NCBI GenBank assembly: GCA_965215015.1
Contig: OZ244042.1
Coordinates: forward strand, 2,752,001 to 2,816,000
Reading direction: 5' to 3'
From: Candidatus Poribacteria bacterium
GTDB lineage: Bacteria; Poribacteria; WGA-4E; PCPOR2b
DNA length: 64,000 bases
A program made the translations under genes and the position numbers. Below, one piece after another: positions 4,132 through 19,430 of this stretch. The first letter of the stretch is position 1; every line of letters starts with the position of its first letter. The notes beneath the pieces were generated by a model that made no database searches, was not told where the DNA came from, and saw only the letters and a program-made list of their open reading frames with translations.

Positions 4132-6069
4132 TCATTGAAACGGCACCGGTATCTTGTCCCCATGCCAAGGAAAGGCATAACTCGGTGAGTTCGCAAAGCG
4201 GCGCATCCCAACCTCCAACCGAATCGTTCTCGAAGGCGGAAGTTGAACGGCAAAAAACTTCGCATCAACCGGAACAACCCGCTCCTCCGATGAACCCTCT
4301 GCGTCCACTTCCTGAAACTGTACTTTGGTAAACTGGTGCTCCCCGAAAGCCCCCGCTTGGATGATAAGATTTCGGGTTTCGGTCCTGTTGAGATTCACAA
4401 GTTGAACCCCTACCACGTCCGATCCCAGCTTGTCGACAAGGGCGGCAACATCCTCCGGGACGCCGGGTCGTGCGCGGTCCGGATCGAAGTAACGTACGGT
4501 CGCTCGCAGAAGTCCACCGGTGTAAACAGTCTGTGGGGCACCCAACATCACCTGTGTCAATCCCTTAGTAAGGACAAAGTGCGGAGGCTGCTGGTTATCT
4601 GCGATTATTGTTGGGACATCGCGGGTATCGTTACGCGCCGCCTCAAACGCTGCCAAAGCCCCTTCATATTCGGCATCCAGTATTTTTTGGGGCCAATCGG
4701 GATTCTTCCCATCGTAGTATTGAAATCGTCCATACTCTGTGTCCCCGTTATTCTTTTCTGCCTCAAACATAACGTGGTTCCAATCGCGCTCGACGTCCCC
4801 GGTTCGCACCCTCGTAATCAACTCGTAATCCTGAGGGGCCATTGAGGCGTGATACAAATGCGCCAAATCTTTCATCCGCATCGGCTTATATGCCTCCCAG
4901 CCGTCGGGACCGTATCGAGTCGGAACAAGGAGCTGGCCATCATCGCGTGTAACCGCGTTGTCCAGCAGAAGTTTGACCTGTGAACGCAGGAGTTCGAGAT
5001 AACCGAAGTCCCCGGTGAGCAGGAGCGCGCATTCAGCACCAACAATGAGTGAATTAAACGTAATATCGCCCGCCCAATAACTGTTCCAACCGTAAAGACC
5101 ACCCCACCACTGCCCCTGACGATGCTCACCAATCTTCCCTGTGGGTCCGACGTTGTCCGGGATAATCCCGTTGTTCGCTTCGATTCGATCCATCCACGCT
5201 TCCGTGTATTCGAGGACCCATCGCCTGTACTTTTCATTTCCTGTATACAGATACGCATTGGTCACCAGTGCGGTGGCACCCAGACTATGTGGTACATCGC
5301 CCTTAAGGATGATCCGCTCAACTAGCTTCTCGATTTCCGCTCTTCGTTGTGGCTGCTCATACCAATTCGCCTCCAACTCCTTGACGACCGGATAGAGGGT
5401 TGACCGCATGCCCATCGCCTTACTGGGATCCGCTCCGATTCTTCCCGCAAGCCAATCTTTTAAGTGTTGGAGATCGACCTTGAAACAGGGCCCCCGGCTG
5501 GTTTGGACGGGAGATCGAAAGATTTTATACTTGGGGTCGTAATTCGGGGCTTGTGGGTCTTCACCGATGTACATCGCTGCGAACTGTTTCGCACGTCGGA
5601 CGTTCTCCGAAATAGTAGGGCTAGCAACACCAAAATCATAGAAGGCCATGTTACCTTCGCCCAAATGATGCCATTCCGCCGCACCGGGCTGCGCTAAATT
5701 GTAGTATTCCCTATAGACCTGCTGCGAGAAGCGCGGATGCGTCCGATGCACAATCTCATCGCTACAGATACGGGTTGACGCGTTCCAGCACAGTAGTGCC
5801 AATTCCAGTAGACGCTCATCCGCCCCGAGGGCGTAGAAAAGCCCCCAGTTATAAATTCGTTCATAGAGGTCATCCAAATCGTCCGCGAAGTATAACGCGC
5901 CTCCCGGTTCGGCATACTTCTTGAGCAACATCGGTGCTGCTTCTTCCATGAGGCTTATCAGGTTGCGCTCCTTCAGTGCCCACGCCGGTGGGGCTGAGAG
6001 TTCCGTTGCCTTGAGGCTAACCATCCCGGGAATGGAAACCACATTCCCTGAAAGCGTATCTATTTTCAT
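4132..6069 (-). CDS. Hypothetical protein, 645 aa, probable helical-barrel enzyme
   Basis: Long ORF with GGAG RBS; Trp/Tyr/Asp-rich motifs (DDLYE, EWHHLGEG, WWGGLYGW); family not recognised with certainty. Confidence 0.8.
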   Translation of the reverse strand: MKIDTLSGNVVSIPGMVSLKATELSAPPAWALKERNLISLMEEAAPMLLKKYAEPGGALYFADDLDDLYERIYNWGLFYALGADERLLELALLCWNASTRICSDEIVHRTHPRFSQQVYREYYNLAQPGAAEWHHLGEGNMAFYDFGVASPTISENVRRAKQFAAMYIGEDPQAPNYDPKYKIFRSPVQTSRGPCFKVDLQHLKDWLAGRIGADPSKAMGMRSTLYPVVKELEANWYEQPQRRAEIEKLVERIILKGDVPHSLGATALVTNAYLYTGNEKYRRWVLEYTEAWMDRIEANNGIIPDNVGPTGKIGEHRQGQWWGGLYGWNSYWAGDITFNSLIVGAECALLLTGDFGYLELLRSQVKLLLDNAVTRDDGQLLVPTRYGPDGWEAYKPMRMKDLAHLYHASMAPQDYELITRVRTGDVERDWNHVMFEAEKNNGDTEYGRFQYYDGKNPDWPQKILDAEYEGALAAFEAARNDTRDVPTIIADNQQPPHFVLTKGLTQVMLGAPQTVYTGGLLRATVRYFDPDRARPGVPEDVAALVDKLGSDVVGVQLVNLNRTETRNLIIQAGAFGEHQFTKVQFQEVDAEGSSEERVVPVDAKFFAVQLPPSRTIRLEVGMRRFANSPSYAFPWHGDKIPVPFQ

Positions 6070-6286: not shown

Positions 6287-8845
6287 CTAGCGACGTGAAC
6301 CCGAATGTTTTATATTGGATTCAGACAGCAACTGGTATATGTATCTTGCAGGGATAGCAAACGCGTTCATGTGCCTATCGCTCCGTGCGATAATCCCAAG
6401 CAGGATGCCCTGTCTGTTCAGCACCGGTCCCCCACTGTTGCCCCCAAAGATATCGGACTGGAGGTGCAGTGCCCTTCCGGAGTCCTTTTGGAATTGTCCC
6501 AGCTTCCAATGCCACAGGTCGCGGCCTCCCGGATTGCCGAGGATGTAAACCAACTCACCTGTATTTATCCGGGGTGTGGTGCGGCCCCAGTCAATTTGGC
6601 GAGCAGTCTCCGGGAGGCCCTCAAGCCGGATAATCACGAGGTCTGCCTCCACATTTTTGGCTACCACATGGCCTTTGGTATAATAACCGAGTCGCTTTAA
6701 CACGCTACGACTTTTTAGGTAGAACTCCCGCTCTTTAATCAGTTTTCCGTTCTCATCGGGCGCGGGGAAATATACATCTACAGACAGACTTGTGTCTGTT
6801 ACGTGTGCGTTGGTGACGGCGAGCTTAAATTGCTTGTCAAGCAGCACCCCACTCCCTTCACCTATACCCGGGTTCACTATCCACATCACCGCGCGAATCG
6901 CGTTGTCATAGACTCGGTCCGCGTCTGTTTTGGGCGGTGTCGAGGCATCAGGGGCCGCCGGAGGAGTTACCACGGATGGCGGACTGAAATCAAGTGCTGG
7001 GCGCGAGGGAGATATTTTCCACAGGAGCACTGTGCTGTCGTTACTCCCACTTGCCAATGTCCCCCCATCCGGACTGAAGGCTACGCTATTGACCATATCC
7101 GTATGCCCGATAAGTGCCCTCTTCTGTTCACCTGTCACGGCGTCCCACAATCGAACTGTTTTGTCTCTACTCCCACTTGCTAGCGTCCCCCCATCCGGAC
7201 TGAAGGCTACGCTATCGACCGGCCCCCTATGCCCGATAAGCCTCCCCTTCTGTTCACCTGTCACGGCGTCCCACAAACGCACTGTGCTGTCGTTACTCCC
7301 ACTTGCCAATGGCCCCCCATCGGGACTAAATGATACGCTCTGGACCCTATCCGTATGCCCGATAAGCCTCCCCTTCTGTTCACCTGTCACGGCATCCCAC
7401 AACCGAACTGTATCGTCCCAACTCCCACTTGCCAATGTCCCCCCATCTGGACTGAAGGCTACGCTATTGACCATATCTGTATGCCCGATAAGTGCCCTCT
7501 TCTGTTCACCTGTCACGGCGTCCCACAACCGAACTGTATCGTCCCCACCCCCACTTGCCAATGTCCCCCCATCGGGACTAAATGATACGCTCGTGACCCT
7601 ACCCGTATGCCCGATAAATGCCCTCTTCTGTTCACCTGTCACGGCATCCCACAACCGAACTGTATCGTCCCCACCCCCACTTGCCAATGTCCTCCCATCG
7701 GGACTGAAGGCTACACTCCAGACGAAACTCGTACTCCGCCCGATAAATGCCCTCTTCTGTTCACCTGTCACGGCATCCCACAACCGAACTGTCTTGTCCC
7801 AACCCCCACTTGCCAATGTCCCCCCATCGGGACTAAATGATACGCTCGTGACCCTATCCGTATGCCCGATAAGTGCCCTCTTCTGTTCACCTGTCACGGC
7901 ATCCCACAACCGAACTGTATCGTCCCCACTTGCCAATGTCCTCCCATCGGGACTAAATGATACGCTCGTGACCCTACCCGTATGCCCGATAAATGCCCTC
8001 TTCTGTTCACCTGTCACGGCGTCCCACAAACGAACTGTCTTGTCCCAACCCCCACTTGCTAATGTCCGTCCGTCCGGACTGAACGATACGCTATAGACCC
8101 AACCCGTATGCCCGATAAGTGTTCCCTTCTGTTTACCCGACGCGGTGTTCCACAAACGAACCGTCTTGCCCCCACTCCCACTTGCCAACGTCCCCCCATC
8201 CGGACTGAAGGCTATGCTCATGACCAAATCCGTATGCCCGATAAGTATCCCCGTCTGCTCACCCGTAACGGCGTCCCACAAACGAACCGTCTTGTCCCCA
8301 CTCCCACTTGCCAGCGTCCCCCCATCCGGACTGAAGGCTACGCTATAGACCGTATACGTATGCCCGATAAGCCTCCCCTTCTGTTTACCCGTAACGGCGT
8401 CCCACAAACGAACCGTCTTGTCCGCACCCCCACTTGCCAGCGTCCCCCCATCCGGACTGAAGGCTACGCTATAGACCTCATCCGTATGCCCGATAAGTGT
8501 CCCCTTCTGTTTACCCGTAACGGCGTCCCACAAACGAACCGTCTTGTCCCTACTCCCACTTGCCAGCGTCCCTCCATCCGGACTGAACGATGCGCTACTG
8601 ACCGAATCCGTATGCGCGGTGGACAGGGCAACCTCTTGATAGGTTTGTGCATCATAAAGCCAGATACCGATGGAACTCGCAACAGCCAGACGAGCCCCGT
8701 CGGGGGAAAACTGTATTTCATGTATCCGGCCTTTACCGAGGCGCGCTGTGGCACCTTCGGGCAAACCCCATTGCGTATAGTCCTGGGCAAGGACGTTTGA
8801 TGAAAATAAAATAAAAAGAATAAGTAATGTTACGGTTGCTTTCAT
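6287..8845 (-). CDS. Secreted WD40-repeat protein (14 repeats) with C-terminal trypsin-like serine protease
   Basis: Signal peptide ending VLA-Q; 14 FSPD-containing repeats; Pro-rich linker; catalytic motifs TNAHV, DLVII and GNSGGP. Confidence 0.93.
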   Translation of the reverse strand: MKATVTLLILFILFSSNVLAQDYTQWGLPEGATARLGKGRIHEIQFSPDGARLAVASSIGIWLYDAQTYQEVALSTAHTDSVSSASFSPDGGTLASGSRDKTVRLWDAVTGKQKGTLIGHTDEVYSVAFSPDGGTLASGGADKTVRLWDAVTGKQKGRLIGHTYTVYSVAFSPDGGTLASGSGDKTVRLWDAVTGEQTGILIGHTDLVMSIAFSPDGGTLASGSGGKTVRLWNTASGKQKGTLIGHTGWVYSVSFSPDGRTLASGGWDKTVRLWDAVTGEQKRAFIGHTGRVTSVSFSPDGRTLASGDDTVRLWDAVTGEQKRALIGHTDRVTSVSFSPDGGTLASGGWDKTVRLWDAVTGEQKRAFIGRSTSFVWSVAFSPDGRTLASGGGDDTVRLWDAVTGEQKRAFIGHTGRVTSVSFSPDGGTLASGGGDDTVRLWDAVTGEQKRALIGHTDMVNSVAFSPDGGTLASGSWDDTVRLWDAVTGEQKGRLIGHTDRVQSVSFSPDGGPLASGSNDSTVRLWDAVTGEQKGRLIGHRGPVDSVAFSPDGGTLASGSRDKTVRLWDAVTGEQKRALIGHTDMVNSVAFSPDGGTLASGSNDSTVLLWKISPSRPALDFSPPSVVTPPAAPDASTPPKTDADRVYDNAIRAVMWIVNPGIGEGSGVLLDKQFKLAVTNAHVTDTSLSVDVYFPAPDENGKLIKEREFYLKSRSVLKRLGYYTKGHVVAKNVEADLVIIRLEGLPETARQIDWGRTTPRINTGELVYILGNPGGRDLWHWKLGQFQKDSGRALHLQSDIFGGNSGGPVLNRQGILLGIIARSDRHMNAFAIPARYIYQLLSESNIKHSGSRR

Positions 8846-8861
8846 GTAAATTTCTACCCTT

Positions 8862-9068
8862 TCACCTGTATTTATCGGGGGCGTGGTGAAACCCTAGTCA
8901 ATCTGGCGAGCAGTTTCCGGTAGGCCATCAAGCCGGATAATCACGAGGTCTTTCCCCACATTTTTGGCTACCACATGCCCTTTGGTATAATAACCGAGTC
9001 GCTTTAACACGCTACGCCTCTCTAGTATAGAACTTCCGTTTTTTAATCAGTTTTCCGTTCTCATCGGG
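8862..9068 (-). pseudogene. Duplicated internal fragment of the trypsin domain (frameshifted, internal stop)
   Basis: Near-copy of 6555-6760 (PDENGKLI...INTGE). Confidence 0.85.
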
Positions 9069-9076
9069 ACTGGACG

Positions 9077-10936
9077 CTAGGGAGATATTTTCCACAGGAG
9101 CACTGTGCCATCCCTACTCCCACTTGCCAATGTCCCCCCATCGGGACTGAACGATACGCTCATGACCTTATCCGTATGCCCGATAAGTGCCCTCTTCTGT
9201 TCACCTGTCACGGCGTCCCACAACCGAACTGTACCGTCCCAACCCGCACTTGCCAATGTCCTCCCGTCTGGACTGAAGGCTATGCTCGTGACCGAATCCG
9301 TATGCCCGATAAGCATCCCCTTCGGTTTACCCGTCACAGCGTCCCACAACCGAACTGTACCGTCCCAACCCGCACTTGCCAGCATCCCTCCATCAGAACT
9401 GAATACCATGCTCGTGACCACACCCATATACCCGATAAGCCTCCGCTGCTGTTTCTGTTTACCCGTCACAGCGTCCCACAACCGAATCGTCTCGTCATAA
9501 CTCGCACTTGCCAGCATCCCTTCATCGGGACTGAACGATACGCTATAGACCCAACTCGTATGCCCGATAAGTGCCCTCTTTTGTTCACCCGTCACAGTGT
9601 CCCACAATCGCACTGTTTTGTCCCCACCCCCACTTGCCAATGTCCTTCCATCTGGACTGAAGGCTATGCTCGTGACCTTACCCGTATACCCGATAGGTGT
9701 CCCCTTCTGTTTACCCGACACCGCTTCCCACAAACGAATATCGCCCAGCATACCCACACTTGCCAGCGTCCGTCCATCCGGACTGAACGATACGCTCTCG
9801 ACCAAACCATAGACCTCACCCGTATGCCCGATAAGCCTCCCCTTCTGTTTACCCGTCACAGCGTCCCACAAACGAACTGTCTTGTCCCCACCCCCACTTG
9901 CCAGCGTCCCTCCATCTGGACTGAACGATACGCTCTCGACCAAATCCGTATGCCCGATAAACCTCCCCTTCTGTTCACCCGTCACCGCGTCCCACAACCG
10001 AATCGTCTTGTCATAACTCGCACTTGCCAGCATCCCTCCATCGGGACTGAAGGCTATGCTCGTGACCTCACTCGTATGCCCGATAAACCTCCCCTTCTGT
10101 TTACCCGACACCGCATCCCACAATCGCACCGTCTTGTCCCGACTCCCACTTGCCAATGTCCCTCCATCGGGACTGAAGGCTACGCTATAGACCAAACCCG
10201 TATGCCCGATAAGTGTTCCCTTCTGTTCACCCGACACCGCGTCCCACAAACGCACTGTATTGTCCCGACTCCCACTTGCCAATGTCCCTCCATCGGGACT
10301 GAAGGCTACGCTATGGCCCCAACCCGTATGCCCGATAAGTGTTCCCTTCTGTTTACCCGACACAGCGTCCCACAAACGAACCGTCTTGTCCCAACCCACA
10401 CTTGCCAGCGTCCCTCCATCTGGACTGAACGATACGCTCTCAACCGAATCCGTATGCCCGATAAATGTCCCCTTCGGTTCACCCGACATGGCGTCCCACA
10501 ACTGCACTGTACCGTCCCCCTCCCCACTTGCCAATGTCCCTCCATCCGGACTGAAGGCTACGCTACTGCAACCCGTATGCCCGATAAGTGTTCCCTTCTG
10601 TTTACCCGACACGGCGTCCCACAACCGAACCGTCCCGTCCCGACTCCCACTTGCCAGCGTCCCTCCATCCGGACTGAACGATGCACTACTGACCGAATCC
10701 GTATGCCCGGTGAACAGGGCAACCTCTTGATAGGTTTGTGCATCATAAATCCAGATACCGATGGAACTCGCAACAGCGAGACGAGTCCCGTCGGGGGAAA
10801 ACTGTATTTCACGTATTAAGCCTTTACCGAGGCGCGCTGTGGCACCTTCGGGTAAACCCCATTGCGTATAGTCCTGGGCAAGGACGTTTGATGAAAATAG
10901 AATAAAAAGAACAAGTAATATTACGGTTGTTTTCAT
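9077..10936 (-). CDS. Secreted WD40-repeat protein (14 repeats)
   Basis: True start MKTTVILL at 10936 (paralogous signal peptide); 14 repeats; ends LLWKISP*. Confidence 0.92.
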   Translation of the reverse strand: MKTTVILLVLFILFSSNVLAQDYTQWGLPEGATARLGKGLIREIQFSPDGTRLAVASSIGIWIYDAQTYQEVALFTGHTDSVSSASFSPDGGTLASGSRDGTVRLWDAVSGKQKGTLIGHTGCSSVAFSPDGGTLASGEGDGTVQLWDAMSGEPKGTFIGHTDSVESVSFSPDGGTLASVGWDKTVRLWDAVSGKQKGTLIGHTGWGHSVAFSPDGGTLASGSRDNTVRLWDAVSGEQKGTLIGHTGLVYSVAFSPDGGTLASGSRDKTVRLWDAVSGKQKGRFIGHTSEVTSIAFSPDGGMLASASYDKTIRLWDAVTGEQKGRFIGHTDLVESVSFSPDGGTLASGGGDKTVRLWDAVTGKQKGRLIGHTGEVYGLVESVSFSPDGRTLASVGMLGDIRLWEAVSGKQKGTPIGYTGKVTSIAFSPDGRTLASGGGDKTVRLWDTVTGEQKRALIGHTSWVYSVSFSPDEGMLASASYDETIRLWDAVTGKQKQQRRLIGYMGVVTSMVFSSDGGMLASAGWDGTVRLWDAVTGKPKGMLIGHTDSVTSIAFSPDGRTLASAGWDGTVRLWDAVTGEQKRALIGHTDKVMSVSFSPDGGTLASGSRDGTVLLWKISP

Positions 10937-10952
10937 GTAAATTTTTACCCTC

Positions 10953-11158
10953 TCACCTGTATTTATCGGGGGTGTGGTGAAGCCCCAGTCAATCTGGCGA
11001 GCGGTCTCCGGTAGCCCATCAAGCCGGATAATCACGAGGTCTGTCTCCACATTTTTGGCTACCACATGGCCCTTGGTATAATAACCGAGTCGCTTTAACA
11101 CGCTACGATTCTCTAGATAGAACTCCCGCTCTCTAATCAGTTTTCCGTTCTCATCGGG
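10953..11158 (-). pseudogene. Second duplicated internal fragment of the trypsin domain (still open, in frame with the downstream WD40 gene)
   Basis: Near-copy of 6555-6760; appears as the N-terminal extension of ORF 9077..11185. Confidence 0.85.
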
Positions 11159-11166
11159 GCTGCACG

Positions 11167-12753
11167 CTAGGGAGATACTTTCCACAGGAGCACTGTACCG
11201 TCCTCACTCCCACTTGCCAATGCCCCTCCATCTGGACTGAACAATAGGTTCGTAACCTCATCTGTATGTCCGATAAGCCTCCCCTTCTGTTCACCTGTAA
11301 CGGCGTCCCACAAACGAACTGTACCGTCTCCACTCGCACTTGCCAATGTCCCTCCATCCGGACTGAAGGCTACGCTCGTGACCCTACCCGTATGCACGAT
11401 AAGCCTCCCCTTCTGTTCACACGTTACGGTATCCCACAAACGAACTGAACGGTCCGTACTCCAACTTGCCAGTGTCCCCCCATCTGGACTGAAGGTTACG
11501 CCCTTGACCCAACTCGTATGCTCGATAAGCCTCCCCTTCTGTTCACACGTTACGGTATCCCACAAACGCACTGTACCGTCATAACTTGTCAATGTCCCTC
11601 CATCTGGACTGAAGGCTACGGTCATGACAGAACCCGTATGCCCGATAAGTGTCCCCTTCTGTTCACCCGTTACGGCGTCCCACAAACGCACTGTACCGTC
11701 ATAACTTGTCAATGTCCCTCCATCTGGACTGAAGGCTACGGTCATGACAGAACCCGTATGCACGATAAGTGTCCCCTTCTGTTCACCTGTAACGGCATCC
11801 CACAACCGAACCGTCTCATCCGTACTCCCACCTGCCAATGTCCTTCCATCTGGACTGAAGGCTACACGCCAGACCCCATACCTATGCCTGATAAGTGTCC
11901 CCTTCTGTTCACCCGTTACGGCGTCCCACAAACGCACTGTACCGTCCCCACTCCCACCTACCAATGTCCCACCATCTGGACTGAAGGCTACGCTCATGAC
12001 CGAACCCGTATGCCCGATAAGCCTCCCCTTCTGTTCACCTGTAACGGCGTCCCACAAACGAACCGTCTTATCCCTACTCCCACTTGCCAATGTCCTTCCA
12101 TCTGGACTGAAGGCTACACGCCAGACCCCATACCTATGCCTGATAAGTGTCCCCTTCTGTTTACCCGTCACAGCGTCCCACAATCGCACTGTAGTGTCCA
12201 CACTCCCACTTGCTAATGTCCCTCCATCTGGACTGAAGGCTACGCTCATGACCGAACCCGTATGCCCGATAAGCCTCCACTTCTGTTTACCTGTAACGGC
12301 ATCCCACAACCGAACCGTCTTATCCTCCCAACTCCCACTTGCCAATGTCCCTCCATCTGGACTGAAGGCTACGCTCATGACCGAACCCGTATGCCCGATA
12401 AGTGCTCCCTTGTGTTCACCCGTTACGGCGTCCCACAACCGCACTGTATCGTCATAATAACCCCCACTTGCCAATGTCCCTCCATCTGGACTGAAGGCTA
12501 TGCTATGATCCCAATCCGCACCGGTGAACAGGGCAACCTCTTGATAGGTTTGTGCATCATAAAGCCAGAGACCGATGGAACTCGCAACAGCAAGACGAGT
12601 CCCGTCGGGGGAAAACTGGATTTCACCAGATAGCGACCCTTTACCAAGGCGCGCGGTGGCACCTTCGGGTAAACCCCATCGCGTATAGTCTTGGGGAGGG
12701 ACGTTTGATGAAAAAAGAATAAAAAGAATAGGTAATGTTACGGTTGCTTCCAT
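11167..12753 (-). CDS. WD40-repeat protein (12 repeats) with degenerate signal peptide
   Basis: AAGGAG RBS; MEATVTLPILFILFSSNVPPQD; 12 repeats; ends LLWKVSP*. Confidence 0.92.
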   Translation of the reverse strand: MEATVTLPILFILFSSNVPPQDYTRWGLPEGATARLGKGSLSGEIQFSPDGTRLAVASSIGLWLYDAQTYQEVALFTGADWDHSIAFSPDGGTLASGGYYDDTVRLWDAVTGEHKGALIGHTGSVMSVAFSPDGGTLASGSWEDKTVRLWDAVTGKQKWRLIGHTGSVMSVAFSPDGGTLASGSVDTTVRLWDAVTGKQKGTLIRHRYGVWRVAFSPDGRTLASGSRDKTVRLWDAVTGEQKGRLIGHTGSVMSVAFSPDGGTLVGGSGDGTVRLWDAVTGEQKGTLIRHRYGVWRVAFSPDGRTLAGGSTDETVRLWDAVTGEQKGTLIVHTGSVMTVAFSPDGGTLTSYDGTVRLWDAVTGEQKGTLIGHTGSVMTVAFSPDGGTLTSYDGTVRLWDTVTCEQKGRLIEHTSWVKGVTFSPDGGTLASWSTDRSVRLWDTVTCEQKGRLIVHTGRVTSVAFSPDGGTLASASGDGTVRLWDAVTGEQKGRLIGHTDEVTNLLFSPDGGALASGSEDGTVLLWKVSP

Positions 12754-17874: not shown

Positions 17875-18879
17875 ATGAACACCTTATTACCTCCATTTCA
17901 TTACACTCATTCGCCAACCTTACCCAAACTGCTCTGGCAATTGGGGTGCACCCTGGTGTTTAGCACCTACCAGGCGGGTAAGGTTATCTTTATCCGTGCC
18001 ACAAGCCCAGAAAAGATTGAGCAGCGCACCTTGGACTTCCCTAGACCTATGGGATTGGCGGTTTCTGATCAGCGGATTGCAGTGGCTACGCGGGATGAGG
18101 TAGTGGTGCTTACTAACACTTCAGTGGAGGAGTCGATTGAGCCCGGGCATGTTGACTCCGGGGGCTTGATTGGAGGGGAAGAGGGCGCGGCGTATGTGCT
18201 GGAAAAGACTTACTTCACCGGAGAGATTGACACCCATGATCTCGCTTGGGGGAAGGACGGCCTGTGGGCAATCAATACCCTCCTTTCATCCATGGCTTTG
18301 GCAGATGATCGCCCAACCTTCGATCTCCAATGGCGCCCCCCATTCGTCAGCGACGTAGCCCCAGAAGATCGTTGTCATTTGAACAGCATAGCGATGGTAG
18401 ATGGTGGACCTGAGTACGTAACAGCGTTTGGGGAGGTGGATACCCTTGAGGGGTGGCGCGAGAATAAACTATCGGGTGGCATTTTGATGAATGTCCCCAG
18501 TGGGGAGATTGTGCTAGAAGGGTTACCAATGCCGCACTCCCCGCGGGTCTATGACGGGAAACTTTATCTGCTGCTCTCAGCGACTGGAGAGTTAGTGTGT
18601 GCCGAACCAGAAACGGGGGGATACGAGGTGGTTACGCAGTTGCCCGGCTTCGTGCGTGGAATGGCTCGTTGTGATGACTATCTATTCGTGGGATTGTCAA
18701 AGCTGCGAAAGACCAGTTCGACCTTTGCAGCACTGCCAATCTCCGAACAGGCGGTGTTCAGCGGCATTGTCGCCGTGTCTCTATCCGAGGGGCGTATTGT
18801 AGAATATCTCAGGTATGAGACAAGTTGCGAGGAGATTTATGATGTGCAAATCTTACCGGAGAGGGATGACGCGCAATGA
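17875..18879 (+). CDS. TIGR03032/DUF4915 family beta-propeller protein
   Basis: STYQAGK, RPMGL, WRPPF..PEDRCHLN, MPHSPR, PGFVRG and EIYDV motifs. Confidence 0.88.
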   Translation: MNTLLPPFHYTHSPTLPKLLWQLGCTLVFSTYQAGKVIFIRATSPEKIEQRTLDFPRPMGLAVSDQRIAVATRDEVVVLTNTSVEESIEPGHVDSGGLIGGEEGAAYVLEKTYFTGEIDTHDLAWGKDGLWAINTLLSSMALADDRPTFDLQWRPPFVSDVAPEDRCHLNSIAMVDGGPEYVTAFGEVDTLEGWRENKLSGGILMNVPSGEIVLEGLPMPHSPRVYDGKLYLLLSATGELVCAEPETGGYEVVTQLPGFVRGMARCDDYLFVGLSKLRKTSSTFAALPISEQAVFSGIVAVSLSEGRIVEYLRYETSCEEIYDVQILPERDDAQ

Positions 18880-19430
18880 ATTGCGCTACTACAAACCGCA
18901 GCCCTTGATACACCACAACCGTCGTAATAAGATAACGCAAAATAAATTACGTTGCTATGAACCGCAGCCGTTGAGAGCTCACAAACATCTTAACAAGATA
19001 ACGCAAAATAAATTACGTTGCTACGAACCGCAGCCATTGAGAACTCACAAACATCTTAAGATAACGCCCAATGAATTGCGCTACTACGTATGAACCGCAG
19101 CCGTTGAGAACTCACAACCGTCGCAATAAGATAACGCGCAATGAATTGCGCTACTACGAACCGCAACACCACAAACACCTTAACAAGATAACGCAAAATG
19201 AATCGCGCTACTACGTATGAACCGCAGCCGTTGAGAACTCACAACCGTCGCAATAAGATAACGCACAATGAATAGCGTTGCTACGAACCGCAGCCGTTGA
19301 TACACCACTACCGTCGTAATAAGATAACGCACAATGAATCGCGCTACTACGTATGAACCGCAGCCATTGAGAACTCACAACCGTCGAAAAGATAACGCGC
19401 AATGAATCGCGCTACTACGAACCTCAGCCC
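18865..19430. repeat. Tandem array of 9 REP-like units (57-70 bp)
   Basis: Units start at 18865, 18931, 18997, 19060, 19130, 19187, 19257, 19323 and 19391; core GATAACGCGCAATGAATTGCGCTACTAC (minus strand GTAG + hairpin). Confidence 0.92.

Follow-up and report, generated by a model that had tools for sequence, protein, structure and literature searches.

What might an exported protein with two WD40 propellers, whose surface residues change from blade to blade, be doing when it is joined to a protease, and why have two of three neighbouring copies lost that protease? The question is raised by a locus at 6287-12753 of a 64,000-nucleotide stretch of DNA from a Candidatus Poribacteria bacterium (contig OZ244042.1, positions 2,752,001 to 2,816,000; the whole stretch is referred to here as the window). 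This locus is filled by three co-oriented WD40 genes on the minus strand, which we call g1, g2 and g3. A preliminary description, made from the sequence alone, had proposed a diversifying repertoire of exported binders with a protease coupled to one of them. The answer that we favour, with moderate confidence, is that the locus belongs to a Poribacteria-wide family of Sec-exported proteins in which a highly repetitive WD40 array is connected by a Pro/Ser linker to an HtrA-like protease lacking PDZ domains, and in which the propeller top faces would provide fast-changing target recognition.

Variable residues on the propeller top faces

The gene g1 (6287..8845, minus strand) encodes 852 aa beginning with MKATVTLLILFILFSSNVLAQ. 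From its translation, Pfam matches and an AlphaFold2 (AF2) model, the protein consists of a signal peptide (aa 1-21, 8783-8845), a WD40 array (aa ~25-612, 7010-8773) with 13 canonical repeats of ~42 aa and a degenerate first blade, a Pro/Ser-rich linker (aa 613-650, 6896-7009) and an HtrA-like protease domain (aa 651-852, 6290-6895; Trypsin_2, PF13365), all on the minus strand. The other two genes, g2 (9077..10936, minus strand; 619 aa, 14 blades) and g3 (11167..12753, minus strand; 528 aa, 12 blades), are WD40-only. Counting the degenerate N-terminal blade of each protein, the blades add up to 14, 14 and 12 for g1, g2 and g3, 40 in total; the open reading frames (ORFs) and the cut-out repeats reproduce the three co-oriented paralogs with 12, 14 and 14 repeats that were first described. 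The arrays found by Tandem Repeats Finder (TRF) have a period of 126 and 12.5, 12.6 and 10.5 copies. Their units are not nearly identical in DNA, as had been claimed: the arrays show 79-85% matches, the mean pairwise nucleotide identity of the repeats is 0.81 in g1, 0.79 in g2 and 0.70 in g3 (the last value being lowered by one mis-registered repeat), and many scaffold codons have diverged synonymously (proportion of synonymous differences, pS, 0.45-0.7).

All three proteins match the WD40 family PF00400, with E values of 4.7e-167 (g1), 1.7e-163 (g2) and 4.7e-122 (g3) over 13, 13 and 11 stretches, respectively. In the AF2 model of full-length g1 the predicted local distance difference test score (pLDDT) is above 90 over most of residues 40-310 and 330-610, with a dip at 318-328 and four strands in every repeat, and the modelled array fits two 7-bladed propellers, in agreement with what had been deduced from the count of fourteen repeats. 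The Foldseek search points the same way: the best match in the PDB is 2ymu_A, a 'highly repetitive propeller structure' (47% identity, E 3.7e-59), and the 7-bladed PkwA domain 5yzv_B compares with the g1 model at TMt 0.98 and a root-mean-square deviation of 1.1 over 290 columns. Judged by eye, g1 and g2 carry typical and intact Sec-type signal peptides, which supports the proposal of export for these two proteins. The proposal holds less well for g3, whose signal peptide differs from the others by a Glu in place of Lys2, a Pro in the hydrophobic core and VPP instead of VLA before the cleavage site.

The variation between blades was analysed in 37 repeats, the three degenerate N-terminal units (blade 0) being excluded, by aligning the proteins and threading the codons back. 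Four columns stand out. Column 19, the second residue after the GHT motif, holds 12 residue types (3.21 bits), and column 25, between V and S, holds 11 (3.10 bits); these two flank a conserved Val. Columns 42 and 44, with 10 and 8 residue types (2.91 and 2.32 bits), lie just before and just after a conserved Asp. Most scaffold columns stay below 1.3 bits, and the 37 repeats display 36 distinct combinations of the four residues. The variable codons listed in the preliminary description agree with this result for column 19, column 25 and the codon before the Asp, and the residue strings that it gave for the protease gene could be reproduced; it also included column 18, with only 4 residue types, and columns 39-40, with modest variability (~1.1 bits), and it overlooked column 44.

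The model of g1 locates these residues. In repeat 2, whose strands span residues 113-118, 124-129, 135-140 and 144-149, the D-A loop takes in residues 122-123, residue 125 is found at the beginning of strand A, and the B-C turn includes residues 141 and 143, which places the variable sites on the top face of a confidently modelled propeller, as had been supposed. Small indels cluster in the same loops, also as first noted: for 7 of the 8 length-variant repeats the indel maps to the D-A loop or to the B-C turn.

Using a home-made parsimony count (SLAC-like) on FastTree trees of the repeats, we estimated the ratio of nonsynonymous to synonymous rates (dN/dS, omega). Pooling the four sites, 7-10 synonymous (S) and 117-132 nonsynonymous (N) changes give an omega of 2.9-4.3 (binomial P 3e-4 to 3e-6), the remainder of the repeat has an omega of 0.41-0.42, and dN at the four sites divided by dS in the rest amounts to 2.7-3.0. 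For single genes omega at the four sites is 2.1-3.5. The codon set fixed beforehand by the preliminary description yields an omega of 6.9-8.8 (P <=1e-8); the count with an omega of 6.9 has S = 5 and N = 123 and gives 0.38 for the rest. The excess of dN/dS at top-face sites that it had anticipated is found in the pooled data and in each gene: the rate of change of four residues in each blade is ~7-10 times that of the scaffold, and their dN/dS exceeds 1. Comparing repeats in pairs, those with a scaffold nucleotide identity of at least 95% differ in residue at 13 of 33 hypervariable codons and at 10 of 255 scaffold codons, and those at 90-95% identity at 182 of 256 and 207 of 1903, respectively. 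The same four positions are also the most variable among 273 canonical 42-aa repeats of homologues.

Blade turnover takes place through whole repeats, which are duplicated, deleted or exchanged. For 28 of the 37 repeats the nearest neighbour by scaffold DNA lies in the same gene, with first and last repeats pairing across genes, a pattern typical of repeat turnover inside genes. Close relatives differ in repeat number, as the proposal of a diversifying system had foreseen, both between orthologues and between the relatives P0005 and P0016, whose near-identical arrays are exactly one 42-aa repeat apart.

A diversity-generating retroelement (DGR), or targeted mutagenesis of this kind, was considered as a source of the variation and ruled out. 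The genome, which is 98% complete, has 0 matches to the reverse transcriptase family RVT_1 (PF00078), which was detected in 3 of 14 genomes in a control (a template repeat was not searched for), and no such gene occurs among the 10 neighbours. Since no reverse transcriptase was matched in the genome, a retroelement diversifier is excluded, and diversification would proceed by germline repeat turnover and selection. The expression 'antibody-like repertoire' is too strong for three genes and no dedicated diversifier.

Could the tandem arrangement or the repeat counts be an artefact of assembly, with repeats collapsed or expanded? Repeats of 126 bp at ~80% identity are hard to assemble, and public short-read (Logan) contigs fragment within the arrays; no listed piece spans the whole stretch, so that blade counts cannot be checked in this way. 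Against an artefact, the genome is a single 5.94-Mb contig, and the repeats are distinct enough for unique placement, 36 of 37 top-face combinations being different. Moreover, the pieces that cover the junctions at 8779-9008 and 10870-11102, and with them the order g3-remnant-g2-remnant-g1 (the remnants are protease fragments described below), are present with 0 differences in two runs (X1 and X5), and overlapping junction pieces occur in two others (X6 and X7), four studies in all, the best-matching of which may be the sample that the genome came from. Joints of Logan contigs, with sides of 21-24 letters where 30 are advised, were excluded as evidence of polymorphism or mis-assembly, and loose ends may be paralogues or other strains. 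Altogether, an artefact is very improbable.

The HtrA-like protease and the copies that lack it

The last 252 aa of g1 match Trypsin_2 (PF13365, E 5.7e-16) and also Trypsin in Pfam, and align with the PDB sequences of HhoA, HTRA1, Deg8 and DegQ at TNAHV, at the Asp of (A)DL(V)I and at GNSGGP. The predicted triad, formed by His681 (6803-6805), Asp735 (6641-6643) and Ser804 (6434-6436; all on the minus strand), does not vary among 42 aligned family members. Modelled alone with AF2 (61 sequences), the domain reaches a pLDDT of 72.5 and a predicted template modelling score (pTM) of 0.78, and this model matches HTRA1, DegQ, Deg1, DegS, DegP and HhoA with template modelling (TM) scores of 0.63-0.75 and E values of ~1e-11. 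The intact His-Asp-Ser protease of the preliminary description is accordingly seen in both the alignment and the predicted fold. No PDZ family is found among the Pfam matches of these 252 residues, and the protein ends ~48 residues past the catalytic Ser; scores for the Do family are 34-41 bits (40.6 bits for TIGR02037) against a cut-off of 416.2, and other HtrA-type NCBIfam models are also far under their cut-offs. Because of the missing PDZ and the low score for the Do family, the domain is best classified as HtrA-like and not as a member of the HtrA/Do family. A search of the ESM Atlas with the protease part returned solely generic Trypsin_2 clusters labelled viral (score 0.90), which is uninformative on relatives.

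Both g2 and g3 have a TAG (at 9074-9076 and 11164-11166, respectively) where g1 has TCG, directly after LLWK(I/V)SP, which reads LLWKISP in g2 and LLWKVSP in g3. Fragments of the protease remain between the genes. Remnant 1 (10940..11161, minus strand), between g3 and g2, corresponds to g1 aa 695-768 at 86% identity and is stop-free; remnant 2 (8849..9067, minus strand), between g2 and g1, corresponds to the same residues at ~70% identity and contains a TGA, a TAG and a frameshift. The three genes have ~15-18 bp upstream of the ATG in common. In their N-terminal 107 aa g1 and g2 are 91% identical, g3 is 80% identical to g1 and 79% to g2, and identity to other species is at most 79%. Given these N-terminal identities and the protease remnants, the three genes are tandem duplicates of a whole protease-bearing gene, made within this lineage; in g2 and g3 a stop behind the final blade, together with deletions, then removed the protease. 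Remnant 1 is also a trap for annotation, being in frame with the start of g2 and giving a spurious 702-aa ORF from a GTG at 11185, an extension (10937-11185) sharing 19 bases with the end of g3; the true start of g2 is the ATG at 10936 (MKTTVILLVLFILFSSNVLAQ), which gives 619 aa. A promoter and terminator scan found no terminator between g1, g2 and g3, and its promoter-like matches were copies within repeats and remnants. Among the public runs listed as containing the sequence, none was of RNA.

We searched 18 genomes of the same genus with the linker-protease part as query and read 8 loci. Their downstream neighbours are 88-94% identical to those in the window, the gene next to g1 (a 645-aa ORF) being present in 8 of 8 loci (88-91%) and PhyH and MR_MLE in 7 of 8; the spacing from the 645-aa ORF to the WD40 gene is 1.5-4.6 kb in these 8 other loci. 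In the window this ORF (4132-6069, minus strand) adjoins g1 downstream and has no Pfam or PADLOC match. Only two of the eight loci have an intact WD40-protease gene (G006, 773 aa from the ATG of the signal peptide; G017, 804 aa). The protease is broken by stops in G018 (L027) and G012 (L028), where the first stop replaces the Arg of ..KTDADRVYDN.. and further stops follow downstream. In the remaining four (G009, G011, G005 and G013) the frame is WD40-only, begins with an intact signal peptide, runs over 616-633 aa and is closed by a TAG at the codon used in g2 and g3; their protease remnants share one deletion junction (..PPKQ|L.H.QSD..), two of them being frameshifted as well. A similar remnant lies at a contig edge in G010, and the remaining nine genomes of the genus gave just distant trypsin-like matches to the query.

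The protease is still present in 3 of the 11 gene copies read; the other 8 have lost it, and in each of them the signal-peptide-WD40 frame has stayed open (336-633 aa); protease loss with a retained open frame recurs across the genus. Because the short remnants already hold stops and frameshifts, the WD40 frame is probably kept open by selection or conversion, and the open WD40-only frames in six other species argue that the binder-only form has some use. As to the stop itself, a TAG after LLWK(I/V)(S/F)P ends six genes, namely g2, g3 and the orthologues in G009, G011, G005 and G013 (L029-L032), and G006 has TAC at this codon; the deletion shared by the four orthologues is different from that of g2 and g3. 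The shared TAG may be an old allele spread by recombination or a recurrent mutation.

The same data bear on the explanation that g2 and g3 are incipient pseudogenes produced by unequal recombination, still open through recency or through conversion by g1, with a single functional member in the cluster. The premature TAG and the dead protease fragments, above all remnant 2, speak for it, as does the signal peptide of g3, without its n-region Lys and with Pro at the cleavage site. Deviations at 19 conserved scaffold columns number 2/228 in g1, 11/228 in g2 and 16/190 in g3 (5-9 times more in g2 and g3), and 5 of the 11 repeats of g3 have identical 'GS.M' top-face residues, which would represent recent internal duplication and not diversity. 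Nevertheless, the frames of g2 and g3 are open over 1.6-1.9 kb, yet the ~220-bp remnant beside g2 has two stops; their scaffold omega of 0.41-0.50 is close to that of g1 (0.40-0.44), and the long WD40-only frames with intact signal peptides persist in G009, G011, G005 and G013. We therefore regard this explanation as possible but rather unlikely. The preliminary description had taken the extra members for binding-only proteins or decoys, which is supported in so far as protease-less forms recur and persist in the genus, but g2 and g3 are truncated duplicates and not designed partners.

The comparison between species also bears on the proposal that g1 is a housekeeping protease of the HtrA type acting in periplasmic quality control, in which the differences between blades would form one fixed binding surface for unfolded substrates, with no ongoing diversification. 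Its HtrA-like sequence and fold would suit this role, and so would the neighbours of the cluster, which are metabolic (amidohydrolase, MR_MLE, PhyH, thiamine pyrophosphate enzyme and metallophosphoesterase; the 10 adjoining ORFs have Pfam matches to metabolic families or none) and include no defence or secretion family; in addition, hotspot variability is general in highly repetitive WD40 proteins, according to the main text of Hu et al. (2017). A fixed binding surface is, however, difficult to reconcile with the orthologues: between g1 and those of G006 and G017 the protease is 87-89% identical, the linker 62-68% and the WD40 region 58-63%, against 88-94% for the neighbouring genes. Blade number varies between orthologues and between near-identical relatives, omega exceeds 1 at the four sites in every gene, and 6 of the 8 other loci examined in the genus have lost the protease, which is atypical of a housekeeping enzyme. 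The genome contains further HtrA-like genes, found as weaker matches of ~31-32% identity. On this evidence the housekeeping role seems improbable.

Relatives and comparable systems

The linker-protease part matches 158 proteins at E<=0.001. In 116 of the 120 that are listed, most of them 500-650 aa long, WD40-type families occur together with PF13365, and 4 have protease families only; of the same 120, the 6 rows that name an organism all name Candidatus Poribacteria. In four proteins (P0067, P0098, P0104 and P0113) the linker-protease module, at 68-71% identity, is preceded by a signal peptide and by ~240 aa of N-terminal sequence that is not WD40 and for which no Pfam family is recorded, which suggests that the protease is a cassette used with different N-terminal domains.

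Highly repetitive WD40 proteins have been described as conserved at most sites and diverse at predicted hotspot sites (Hu et al., 2017; PMC5587647). As far as the main text of that study goes, the present proteins resemble them in the high internal identity of the blades (in g1), the presence of more than one propeller, the conserved scaffold with diverse hotspots, and 2ymu_A as the best fold match. The mean identity of the 42-aa repeats is 0.747 in g1, 0.686 in g2 and 0.594 in g3 (with one mis-registered repeat), which as an all-pairs mean is to be read beside the published cut-off of 0.7 over eight contiguous repeats; by this approximate measure g2 and g3 lie under it. The present proteins differ in that the array stands after a signal peptide and before an HtrA-like protease; the words 'protease' and 'signal peptide' do not occur in the main text of the paper.

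The likeness to fungal HET-E/NWD receptors, which the preliminary description had drawn, extends to both the positions and the mode of evolution. In the fungal proteins the selected codons come in two pairs, one in the d-a loop and the other in the b-c turn at the top of the propeller, with a conserved residue between the members of each pair (Paoletti et al., 2007; PMC1805685). The NWD, HET-E and HET-D genes share with those described here four selected codons at equivalent positions, concerted evolution, repeat exchange and loss-of-function copies at related loci; 55 distinct combinations in 69 repeats are given for the fungal NWD genes, as opposed to 36 in 37 here. Family membership, in contrast, fails on the absence of an NTPase and on export: the best 25 of 57 Pfam matches, all of them propeller families, include no NTPase, and the blades of g1 begin at aa ~25, which leaves no room for one. 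Relative to the fungal system as described there, the poribacterial proteins have neither a NACHT NTPase nor a HET effector, are exported by a signal peptide and carry a C-terminal protease as effector, there is no repeat-induced point mutation (RIP), and the DNA identity of the repeats is lower (~80%), with substantial synonymous divergence.

With the HtrA, DegP, DegQ and DegS proteases (S1C) the g1 protein has in common the extracytoplasmic location, the chymotrypsin-fold domain and the motifs TNAHV, DL and GNSGGP; unlike these, it has no PDZ domain, and its accessory domain is an N-terminal WD40 array. For poribacterial genomes, WD40 proteins have been reported as highly abundant, many of which have a signal peptide or, at the C terminus, a sorting domain of the Por type (Kamke et al., 2014; PMC3909097). 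In agreement with this, other exported WD40 paralogues of the present genome end in Dockerin_1 and a FlgD_ig/Por_Secre_tail-like domain and not in a protease, and g1 itself has a eukaryote-type repeat domain behind an export signal. The word 'protease' is absent from the main text of that report, which mentions no site-wise variability, and its tables S8 and S9 may list such genes. Finally, an S8 peptidase with C-terminal WD40 repeats is found next to DGR-diversified sensors of the STAND class (bioRxiv 10.1101/2023.09.22.558884). These conflict systems likewise combine a protease with a propeller in a context of variable recognition, but they are cytoplasmic and involve a STAND NTPase, adaptors and a reverse transcriptase, whereas the present locus has metabolic neighbours, no RVT_1 and a signal peptide. 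Highly repetitive WD40 proteins with variable hotspots and the abundance of exported WD40 proteins in Poribacteria are therefore already published. For an exported WD40-HtrA-like fusion with recurrent protease loss we found no description in the literature, as judged from titles and the beginnings of abstracts, supplements lying outside the search.

Elsewhere in the genome, two of these exported WD40 paralogues in tandem (867 and 915 aa) and a single one (794 aa) lie at 2246000-2258999 (L033) and 225000-232999 (L035). A further paralogue at 2483868-2484785 (L034) is 56% identical to the blades of g1 and has a TAA within the match; with a 378-aa ORF and ~4 blades it is probably another broken copy. 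In the window, a non-coding tandem array at 18865-19429, between the DUF4915 and ThuA genes, comprises 8.6 copies of ~66-bp units with 76% matches, each unit holding a short palindrome (..GCGCAATGAATTGCGC..). Membership of the locus in an anti-phage defence system was considered and rejected, as PADLOC gave domain-level matches alone (RT-Protease_XI, E 7e-12, and LmuA, 3e-4, for the protease; 'HEAT-ARM_XIII' for the WD40 part).

A possible recognition-and-cleavage function

How might the parts of the g1 protein act together? In the reading that we favour, the propeller top faces would form a target-recognition module, taking the place that PDZ domains have in HtrA proteases, and would bring a protein target outside the cytoplasm to the protease or control its access to cleavage. 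This target would be one that changes quickly, such as a surface protein of a host, a competitor or a phage. The WD40-only derivatives would have kept binding but not cleavage, with at least g3 possibly in decay.

Several observations weigh against the favoured reading. Top-face positions are the most variable ones in WD40 proteins generally, and some variation between blades is needed merely to build an asymmetric binding site, so that it does not by itself show an arms race. The omega values were obtained on recombining repeats of 126 nucleotides, with sites near saturation and by a parsimony count instead of a site model based on likelihood. When full-length g1 is modelled with AF2, the protease part stays under a pLDDT of 50 and the pTM is 0.45, which leaves the placement of propellers and protease relative to each other undefined. 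The rise in scaffold deviations from g1 through g2 to g3 is as expected for decaying copies, the signal peptide of g3 looks damaged, and the frequency of protease loss in the genus could mean that the whole gene is dispensable.

A bolder version would see here an extracellular, germline-encoded system of recognition and cleavage, in which top faces are continually re-sorted by repeat exchange and selected for binding to fast-changing external proteins (from host, competitor or phage), the fused protease cleaves the proteins that are bound, and the recurrent protease-less forms, with the same TAG in six genes, act as non-cleaving binders or competitors; it would be an exported counterpart of the cytoplasmic WD40 sensors of the NOD-like receptor (NLR) type. 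This version we consider doubtful. Up to now, highly repetitive WD40 arrays with variable top faces have mainly been discussed as cytoplasmic sensors (fungal NLRs, bacterial STAND-type proteins) or as structural curiosities, and the same evolutionary mode is met here in an exported protein tied to a protease, in a phylum that figures in studies of sponge symbiosis and is rich in 'eukaryote-like' repeat proteins. Even if the proposed recognition does not hold, the locus would still be a documented case of repeat turnover with site-specific selection, and of traps for annotation. If the top faces do bind host or phage proteins, they would offer a testable handle on how such symbionts deal with their surroundings, and alleles with and without the protease would form a natural series ready for comparison.

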